A DNA stretch of 64,000 nt from an uncultured Acetobacteraceae bacterium (GCA_964235485.1 CAXSAZ010000019.1:8984-72983), one strand, 5' to 3'. Positions 60,685 through 61,440 are shown, counted from the stretch's first letter. The notes: generated by a model not told the origin, from the sequence alone. Numbers and translations: made by a program.

Positions 60685-61060
60685 ATGTCGCTTCGAGCGC
60701 AACCGCCGATCCCGCCCGTGCCCGACGACACTGCCCGGGTGGCCTGCGCCGCGTTCCAAACCCGCAATCCCTATCTGATCCTGCACGACCGGCTCGGCAC
60801 GTTATTCACGCGCAAATCCTTCGGATTTCGCTGCGGATGCCGACTTCGCCGATCTCTGTCCCAAGCGCGGGCAGCCGGCTTATGCGCCGTGGCGGCTCGC
60901 GCTGGTGACGCTCATGCAGTTCCGCGAAGGGCTAAGCGACCGGCAAGCGGCGGAAGCCGTGCGTGCTCGGATCGACTGGAGATACTTGCTGGCGCTTGAC
61001 CTGGCCGACCCAGGCTTTGATCGCAGCGTGCTGTGCGAGTTTCGCGACAGGCTGCTGGCC
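60685..61060 (+). pseudogene. IS1182-like transposase N-terminal remnant, frameshifted by a 25-bp insertion
   Basis: VPDDTARVA.AAF...NPYL.L.DRLG.LFT / [44 protein letters not shown]. Confidence 0.82.
60811..60833 (+). repeat. Minimal form of the CG-flanked element (termini only)
   Basis: CG|CGCAAATC-CTTCGGA-TTTCGCTG|CG; removing 25 bp restores TTC ACG GAT GCC (F-T-D-A). Confidence 0.72.
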
Positions 61061-61192
61061 CGTGGTGACCAGTACCGGGCAACCGTGATCGGCTGACGCG
61101 CGAGATCGACCAGGGCGGCCGGGAGACGGGCGGCCGGGTCCACGAGGTTTGCGGGAAGTGGTGACAAAGATGGCCTGACAGTTGACCGGCAG

Positions 61193-61440
61193 GCGCACGC
61201 GAGCTCGCGAAAACGCGGAGCGTTTGCCGCTGGGAACGTCCGGACGTGGCGCGGCACCGGCAGGCCTGGTTCGACGGCCAGCTCGAGCTCGACCCCGAGC
61301 GGCTGATCTTTGTGGATGAAAGCGGGGCCAACACAAAGATGGCACGGCTCCGTGGTCGTGCCGCGCGAGGCGAACGGTGCCAGGCCGCGGTGCCGCACGG
61401 GCACTGGAAGACCACGACGTTTGTGCGCGCGCTCCGCGGC
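61193..61440 (+). pseudogene. IS630-family transposase internal remnant
   Basis: [61 protein letters not shown]. Confidence 0.85.
61203..61233 (+). repeat. Degenerate copy of the element core inside the IS630 remnant
   Basis: GCTCGCGAAAACGCG-GAGC-GTTTGCCGCTGG vs GCTCGCCGAAACGCG-CAAC-GTTTGCGGCTGG. Confidence 0.6.

Follow-up and report, generated by a model that had tools for sequence, protein, structure and literature searches.

Prokaryotic repetitive extragenic palindromes (REPs) have been divided into two classes, one tagged GTAG and linked to REP-associated tyrosine transposases (RAYTs) and one tagged CGTC (Di Nocera, De Gregorio & Rocco 2013; PMC3733652). The CGTC families come mostly from alpha-proteobacteria and lack a dedicated transposase; their stems start with A/T pairs, and they have loops of 4-5 nt and a CCA tail. 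The class includes dRS3 of Neisseria and RPE-4 and RPE-6 of Rickettsia, and its terminal tags are CGTC or TGTC/CCTC (PMC3733652). According to the same survey, some REPs lie inside genes, tRNA synthetase genes included, and further untagged families surely exist (PMC3733652). Here we describe a REP-like hairpin family from one uncultured genus of Acetobacteraceae. It is seen in a 64,000-nt stretch of DNA (the window, C19:8984-72983 of the draft genome G000, 5.05 Mb, 70% G+C) as a 25-nt insert in the remnant of an IS1182-family transposase gene (IS, insertion sequence) and as a decayed unit in the remnant of an IS630-family transposase gene. The comparisons draw on 18 genomes of the genus, labelled G000 to G017; the relatives of G000 are metagenome bins of uncultured Acetobacteraceae, one of which bears the label of a Lobaria lichen metagenome-assembled genome (MAG). 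For counts of exact patterns, 23 genomes of other genera served as the outgroup and the reversed pattern as the control.

The family consists of two sister types of unit. Type 1 reads YCGCGC-AAA(x3-5)-loop-(x'3-5)TTT-CGCT and is usually 27 nt long; type 2 reads AGCCGC-AAACGC-NNN-GCGTTT-CGGCGA, also 27 nt. A short GC stem forms the base of each (GCG/CGC for type 1 and GCCG/CGGC for type 2) and is followed by one bulged C, an upper stem led by AAA/TTT and a 3-nt loop, and the predicted single-stranded DNA fold has the lower GC stem, the bulged C, the AAA-led upper stem and the triloop in this order. The AAA/TTT base of the stem is invariant in the type 1 alignment; past it the upper stem varies with compensating changes, the 3-nt loop can have any sequence, and unit length ranges from 24 to 30 nt with a mode of 27. 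The consensus unit, read directly, has no stop codon in any of the six frames. In the two transposase remnants the features are as follows.

60614-61067, plus strand: IS1182-family transposase remnant; the left end and about the first 125 codons are kept, including the DUF772 domain.
60809-60833, plus strand: 25-nt hairpin insert, a short-stem variant of type 1, CGCGC-AAATCC-TTC-GGATTT-CGCTG.
60814-60828, plus strand: its upper stem-loop AAATCC / TTC / GGATTT, by direct reading of the sequence.
61172-61440, plus strand: IS630-family transposase remnant in two successive frames, truncated on both sides.
61197-61206, plus strand: small deletion of 1 or 4 nt, CACGCGAG-CTCGCG compared with ...AGCGAG-CTCGCG in relatives.
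61205-61231, minus strand: decayed type 2 hairpin unit of 27 nt; the minus strand reads AGCGGCAAACGCTCCGCGTTTTCGCGA.

The IS1182 remnant aligns at 72-88% identity with more than 15 IS1182 copies of the genus, which were gathered by DNA search of the 18 genomes, and a profile search matched window positions 60836-61093 to PF05598 DUF772 (E 5e-19). Its intact relative L030 scored 372 bits against NF033551 IS1182 (cut-off 270), the model of a family that is marked by DUF772 and DDE_Tnp_1 domains. Positions 60805-60839 read TTCA-CGCGCAAATCCTTCGGATTTCGCTG-CGGATG. Exactly 25 bases are missing at this site in a paralog from the same genome (C29:1780-2163, 83% identical), where TTCACG is followed directly by GATGCC, and the same 25-nt gap was found in the alignment in at least 14 further IS1182 copies from other genomes of the genus, giving at least 15 in all. 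Since these copies have the gap, the 25 bases at 60809-60833 are a true insertion, which explains the +1 shift between the upstream frame, MSLRAQPPIPPVPDD...GTLFT, and the downstream frame, DADFADLCPKRGQPAYAPW. Read through, one frame upstream of the insert gives MSLRAQPPIPPVPDDTARVACAAFQTRNPYLILHDRLGTLFT and the IS1182 N-terminus continues downstream in the next frame. The sequence-only reading had proposed both the insertion and its match to the frameshift, with the reservation that intact relatives might carry the same bases; the proposal held, as the copies with the gap include the intact L030. Placement of the insert is ambiguous by 1-2 bases, and under a model of insertion between C and G it would occupy 60808-60832 (A-CGCGC...CGCT), between C60807 and G60833. 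The insert is predicted to fold into GCG/CGC, a bulged C, a 6-bp stem and a triloop, with -6.0 kcal/mol and a z-score of -2.8.

Three separate lesions inactivate the IS1182 remnant: the hairpin insert, an internal deletion after CEFRDRLL and the truncation after about 125 codons. The deletion after CEFRDRLL is common to the window copy and its sister copy in G014. A programmed frameshift over the 25-nt insert was considered and rejected, as no plausible slippery site was seen by eye and the upstream frame of another filled copy, L025, stops at a TGA just past the element. The empty paralog in G000 (L039, C29:1780-3250) is full length apart from one in-frame stop at a position that is Trp in relatives (CPEGKDSAG*YKDV).

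The pair of termini CGCAAATC...TTTCGCTG is common to the IS1182 insert and to two longer copies at 32646-32726 (plus strand) and 33846-33903 (minus strand), as had been noted from the sequence alone. It has 15 exact matches in G000: two are these long copies at 32.6 and 33.8 kb, and the other 13 are hairpins of 23-28 nt with different compensated upper stems and different loops. The reversed-pattern control gave none against these 13, which answers the concern that the termini might match at chance frequency. Exact type 1 patterns occur in 16 of the 18 genomes of the genus and in none of the 23 genomes of other genera; for type 2 the counts are 15 of 18 and 0 of 23, and the reversed controls were zero everywhere. 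With relaxed patterns G000 holds about 69 hairpin copies in total, and across the genus the short hairpins number in the hundreds. One member of the genus, G017 (88% complete), has no exact unit of either type.

In an alignment of 34 distinct 28-nt sequences (the 27-nt type 1 unit and the next G), 98.5% of cells were paired, compared with values down to 31-50% in slid controls. Three stem pairs were changed on both sides (UA to CG, CG to GC and GC to CG), in 14 cells, and the covariation score was reached by 0 of 500 shuffles. The alignment is skewed toward one variant, many loci having been retrieved with a pattern for that variant; an unbiased census of G000 gave the same picture, with at least two extra stem pairs beyond AAA/TTT in 35 of the 44 CGCAAA...TTTCGC matches. 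The variant carried by the IS1182 remnant, AAATCC-NNN-GGATTT, occurs at at least eight loci with unrelated flanks, so that the very short form of about 25 bases is itself the propagating unit. Thus the earlier idea that about 25 bases are enough for spread stands on this variant, and its other half, that a longer element had been stripped of its middle, does not.

The copies are found at unrelated loci: between genes, in prophage DNA, in housekeeping genes, in transposase genes of at least seven kinds and within other members of the family. They occur singly, head-to-tail and adjacent (C26:28747/28771; L114 1722/1743) or nested, and no regular head-to-head doublets of the kind known as REPINs were present among the arrangements inspected. 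The densest cluster observed, at L114:1700-5000 (G014:C609), holds 12 units of both types within 3.3 kb of prophage-like DNA with portal- and prohead-protease-like ORFs (open reading frames). By a rough codon-position test, 45 copies in G000 are non-coding, 19 lie at gene edges and 5 are clearly genic; the test missed at least three copies, which on inspection lie inside open ORFs.

A function for the host would be one reason for such a distribution. The hairpins could be protein-binding sites or signals for RNA stability or termination that are kept by selection, which would suit the 64 of 69 copies that are extragenic or at a gene edge (by the rough coding test) and the covarying stems. The same 25-nt core, CGCAAATCGC-NNN-GCGATTTCGCTG, is moreover found at one conserved locus each in Luteimonas and in Acidobacteriota. 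We regard this explanation as decidedly improbable, as copies interrupt and inactivate genes, are found within ORFs in either orientation and in several frames, and are absent from G017, and as a function would not account for how the copies arise. In Luteimonas sp. WGS1318 (L119:3140-3520; also in L098, L101, L107 and L108) the core lies within a longer palindrome (GATCCGC...GCGGATC), in a tandem array, with a unit of ~87 nt, that lies directly downstream of efp, and it is one conserved locus per genome in five Luteimonas/Lysobacteraceae species. In two Acidobacteriota MAGs (L112:5109-5133 and L124:4067-4091) it is again one locus with conserved flanks and a single copy per genome. A search of the Luteimonas and Acidobacteriota loci against Rfam gave no match. 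Spread of the family across phyla was rejected on this evidence of single conserved loci in place of a dispersed family, and the core in these genomes is probably unrelated to the Acetobacteraceae family.

Set beside the described systems, the Acetobacteraceae family is closest to the CGTC-tagged REPs. Both have a hairpin of 20-40 nt with an unpaired tag, an A/T stem start, a small loop and a short unpaired tail, and both are mainly alpha-proteobacterial, lack a dedicated transposase and occasionally lie in frame in genes, including a tRNA synthetase gene. In contrast to those REPs, the tag here is YCGCGC and the tail CGCT (CGTC and CCA in theirs), so that the tag does not match; the lower GC stem carries a bulged C and the loops are of 3 nt rather than 4-5; the copies are mostly single, tandem or nested where theirs form head-to-head dimers; and the family is restricted to one genus. 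With the GTAG-tagged REP/REPIN-RAYT systems it shares its size, a covarying hairpin stem, many dispersed and mostly extragenic copies, the lack of target duplication and a plausible single-strand mechanism, but its consensus has no GTAG tag, there are no REPIN doublets, and a RAYT gene is missing (two fragments in 18 genomes). Like the palindromic elements of Rickettsia (RPEs) and Wolbachia, the units are selfish palindromes that are tolerated in frame in working genes, to which they add short peptides. Most RPEs are about 100-150 bp long and have sequences unrelated to the present family; here the unit is 24-30 nt, and frame-breaking copies that inactivate transposases are also present.

Two classes of transposon derivative were compared as well. 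Palindrome-associated transposable elements (PATEs) derived from IS200/IS605 resemble the family in that no inverted-repeat synapsis is involved, a hairpin is recognised (as we suppose it to be here), no duplication is made and insertion is beside a short specific sequence; they differ in having two different end hairpins and a Y1 transposase, where the present units have a single hairpin and no Y1 enzyme. Miniature inverted-repeat transposable elements (MITEs) such as Correia/NEMIS, RUP and ERIC are likewise non-autonomous, have inverted ends and lie in or near genes. Unlike the present units they are 70-300 bp long, make target duplications and share the ends of a resident IS; here there is no duplication, and no parent IS was found when one was sought in G000. 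Because it carries neither tag, the family lies outside the GTAG and CGTC superfamilies, and because duplications are missing and G000 holds no parent IS, it is not a family of MITEs. Collectively, these comparisons identify a new, genus-restricted REP-like repeat family with the same architecture and lifestyle as known REPs.

The two long copies, of 81 nt and 57 nt, were decomposed as follows, form A by eye against the unit consensus.

32646-32726, plus strand: long form A, a 30-nt type 1 unit with loop TGAT and a reverse type 2 unit nested at C^G of the 3' arm (^ marks the junction).
33846-33903, minus strand: long form B, the 30-nt type 1 unit again, here with loop GGTC, and a 27-nt type 2 unit (33856-33882, plus strand) nested at the same C^G.

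In long form A, which is flanked by C32645 and G32727, the nested type 2 unit itself holds a third insert. Long form B can be written as CCGCGCAAATCGCCGGTCGGC + TCGCCGAAACGCGGGGCGTTTGCGGCT + GGTTTCGCT(G), with a complete type 2 unit nested in reverse orientation; its type 2 core is located at C19:42842-42862. The third short repeat, GAAGTCACCGAATCGCCGGAACCCGAAGG-like, lies at window 32686-32714 inside the type 2 unit of long form A and recurs beside a type 1 unit at C3:162272-162292. Since the long copies resolve into nested short units, the short hairpin is the basic unit and the long copies are composites of it, which reverses the derivation first proposed. In that proposal the 23-bp form was a termini-only deletion derivative of an element of 55-80 bp that makes a 2-bp CG target duplication, with the termini carrying mobility. 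The termini are indeed identical to those of the long copies, and CG stands on both sides in the IS1182 case. This explanation is nevertheless largely refuted and extremely improbable: there are more than 10 short units for every long one, the long copies are nested short units, the other filled/empty pairs have no CG duplication, and compensated stem variation is unexpected from the deletion of one parent.

The units might also be excision footprints, that is, both termini of a larger transposon that has departed. A unit does resemble two imperfect 12-nt inverted ends around 3 variable bases, and some eukaryotic elements leave footprints that consist of their termini only. We consider this scarcely tenable, as no pair of the 9-nt termini lies 40-6000 bp apart in G000 that would mark a parent transposon, and a target duplication is never retained. 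Furthermore, the arms are without exception symmetric, the loops are of 3 nt, the stems covary, and identical units are found at many loci.

To define the junctions, the surroundings of relatives' copies were fetched and aligned to G000, and vice versa, which yielded 11 pairs of filled and empty sites. The pairs are listed below with the length of the insertion.

ISAzo13-like transposase gene: 28 nt.
tyrS: 27 nt, filled in G001 and G011.
rarA-like gene: 27 nt.
IS630 gene: 27 nt.
Two IS1182 subfamilies: 25 nt each.
DUF29-like gene: 27 nt.
Unnamed ORF: 27 nt.
Two non-coding sites on C113: 24-25 nt.
39623-39649, plus strand: type 2 unit in a surface-protein-like ORF, 27 nt; the relative L099 is without exactly these 27 bases.

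No target duplication was observed in any of the 11 pairs. With junctions placed so as to need the fewest substitutions, a choice on which the C^G calls rest, the inserted block is Y + CGCGC...CGCT and the empty site reads C^G in nine of the 11 pairs; the nested copy in the long forms likewise sits at C^G. The CG...CG that frames the IS1182 insert had been taken for a target duplication. It is not one, as the left CG is the element's own and the right CG belongs to the flank.

Insertions into ORFs that stay open are 24 or 27 nt long. Their hosts are tyrS, the rarA-like and ChaC-like genes, a secreted beta-propeller gene, Tn3-family and IS110-family transposase genes, the DUF29-like gene, the surface-protein-like ORF and the IS630 lineage; in the surface-protein-like ORF, which is repeat-rich and 1212 codons long on the minus strand, the unit at 39623-39649 is read in frame as AVAETQGVCG. 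Of the insertions seen, four have a length not divisible by three (25, 25, 26 and 28 nt), and all four lie in IS transposase genes, namely IS1182 twice, an IS5 remnant and the ISAzo13-like gene. This pattern fits purifying removal of frame-breaking copies from needed genes, a statement that is partly circular; the modal length of non-coding copies is 27 nt too. The sequence-only reading had held that inserts preserve the frame in intact genes and break it in pseudogenes. As a rule this is not supported; the observation behind it is the set of lengths, 24 and 27 nt in open ORFs and 25, 25, 26 and 28 nt in transposase genes, and the insert of the IS630 remnant is in frame. Outside the window, an IS110-family transposase ORF of G000, open for 392 codons, contains a 27-nt type 1 unit (C68:4800-4822) in frame, giving RANGCAISL; a gene at the end of a contig, judged by eye to be of IS110 type, has a unit ~25 nt from its start (C34:40016). 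REPs are known targets of IS110-family elements.

The site used in the IS1182 remnant has been filled more than once. Two more IS1182 copies carry a unit at the identical position, L022 (G014:C32) and L025 (G007:C178). The insert of L022 is a 24-nt version with a compensated stem, AAATTC/GAATTT, and has lost the T of CGCTG, so that it is in frame. This copy also carries a later frameshift and a truncation and would be dead without the insert, so that the in-frame length is no evidence of selection. The insert of L025 is a 25-nt unit with loop TTT. L025 and the empty, intact L030 are 93% identical over 1.85 kb, and the hairpin is their sole frame-breaking difference, the only other coding indel being 15 nt and in frame; on this alignment, the hairpin is the sole frame-breaking lesion of an otherwise intact transposase gene. 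In the tree, L025 falls in a different, well-supported IS1182 clade from the window copy, which forces at least two gains, so that the site has been filled on at least two independent occasions. As the gene has an estimated 200 or so CpG steps, chance re-use of one step would have a frequency of ~0.5%. Up to the very junction, each filled copy has the flanks of its own subfamily, so that simple gene conversion is disfavoured.

The recurrence bears on a serious rival, if an unlikely one, in which the copies spread without any dedicated transposase, either by templated copying of an existing copy, through template switching in replication or through microhomology-mediated repair where forks stall, or by gene conversion over short tracts between repeated genes such as IS copies. 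Hairpins stall replication, no enzyme has been found, and template switches that correct palindromes would keep the stems perfect without selection; the same IS1182 site filled in two subfamilies could be produced by conversion between IS copies. Against this, the flanks of L025 are those of its own subfamily up to the junction, and the inserts have sharp ends at unrelated single-copy loci without flanking homology (tyrS, rarA, DUF29-like). In addition, random templated insertion would not always copy one whole unit.

The explanation that we favour is mobilisation in trans. The 25 bases in the IS1182 remnant are one copy of the genus-restricted REP-like family, new copies of which enter between the C and the G of a target without duplication, and entry into other copies of the family gives the nested long forms. 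A bulged and structured unit, the lack of duplication, a dinucleotide target, nesting and a recurrent site suggest that a folded single strand is recognised. The recognition feature may be the hairpin with its bulge, and the unit may move as single-stranded DNA, or be copied from it, through a protein provided in trans, as in REP- and IS200-type elements. This protein would not be a recognisable Y1 (RAYT) transposase. Frame-breaking lengths would persist solely in dispensable genes such as transposase genes, and the IS630 copy is an older 27-nt in-frame insertion that spread with its IS. Taken as a whole, a REP-like family with C^G insertion and trans-acting single-strand mobilisation is, in our judgement, probably the best explanation.

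Several observations weigh against it. PF01797 (Y1/RAYT) had no match in G000, and its matches over all 18 genomes of the genus came to two short fragments, so no mobilising enzyme has been found; the same search matched 6 of 14 named control genomes, and a RAYT/Y1 transposase was rejected as the mover on these counts. At two of the 11 empty sites the junction is C^A, against a G in the filled copy, and the single type 2 pair with a close empty site reads C^C. In the complete genome G015, type 1 units are 12 on the minus and 4 on the plus strand over the chromosome with no obvious switch (n=16, origin not located). Loop and stem vary from copy to copy, several filled sites are common to different species, and the family may be old and no longer moving. 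Among other searches, inspection of five clusters of copies (prophage, integrase and IS fragments) gave no shared candidate gene, and a search for a phage origin gave no exact match in a viral contig collection. A bolder version of trans mobilisation, which we rate as quite unlikely, holds that an undescribed RAYT-independent machinery still places bulged hairpins of 24-30 nt at C^G without duplication. Its target recognition would make hot spots, such as codon ~40 of IS1182, hit twice by the same variant, and the hairpins, which have hit at least seven transposase families, would in effect kill or modify other mobile elements.

The unit in the IS630 remnant has a different history. Window positions 61234-61440 match PF13358 DDE_3 weakly in a profile search (E 1.5e-4, under the gathering score), and an intact relative, L051, scored 155 bits against NF033545 IS630 (cut-off 100). 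The unit at 61205-61231 is a type 2 unit with a few substitutions in which the family's hairpin fold is lost. As the sequence-only reading had it, one family of short elements is thus present in both remnants, with a type 1 copy in IS1182 and a decayed type 2 copy in IS630. The same insert, with the same loop and at the same site, is present in IS630 copies of G013, G005, G007 and G006, making five genomes with G000, and the empty site, HASEQ.RPDV, is uninterrupted in the more distant copies L053 and L052. Read in frame, the filled sequence is ...TLHAAE-LAETRSVCRW-DRPDV..., with Q swapped for LAETRSVCRW. L051:199-1200 (G013:C235) is an apparently intact IS630 ORF, open for 334 codons, which keeps its DDE residues and has the insert. 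The open ORF of L051 and the site shared by five genomes show that the IS630 insert is an old, tolerated, in-frame 27-nt insertion that was carried along as that IS spread.

The proposed interruption of the IS630 gene at 61203-33 therefore survives as a member of the family but not as a frame-breaking hit, as the insert is inherited and in frame and the frameshift comes from a separate deletion. Frame comparison with L051, L054 and L055, in which the stretch ...xE-LAETRSVCRW-(D/E)R... is in a single frame, traced the frameshift to the deletion of 1 or 4 nt immediately 5' of the unit. The L051 ORF holds two in-frame type 2 units, ELAETLRVCGW upstream and FAETRSVCRW. In L053 (G005:C449), on the minus strand and ~130 nt upstream of GCCTGGTTCGACGC, there is a different palindromic insert of ~54 nt, CGCTGACC...TCGAGCTTCGCTCGA...GGTCAGC, within the RPDV codons, which may represent a further hairpin repeat family. 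In the window the truncated IS630 remnant is adjoined by an ABC-transporter ATPase gene on the minus strand (61440-61942; Walker A GPSGCGKS), the C-terminal end of which is seemingly lost there; the whole of 60.6-61.5 kb is a heap of broken mobile DNA.

Small palindromic repeats without a transposase are common in the alpha-proteobacteria, and their spread is an open question (PMC3733652). The present family is clean material for it, with a unit of ~25-27 bases, exact junctions, nesting, a site used twice and a case in which the hairpin is the sole lesion. Uncultured hosts limit direct testing; G017 is a natural contrast for tracing a mobilising gene. REP-like repeats can disable insertion sequences or ride along with them, which matters for how IS pseudogenes in metagenome bins are read. 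If a RAYT-independent machinery does exist, its enzyme would answer how the transposase-less REPs of the alpha-proteobacteria move.

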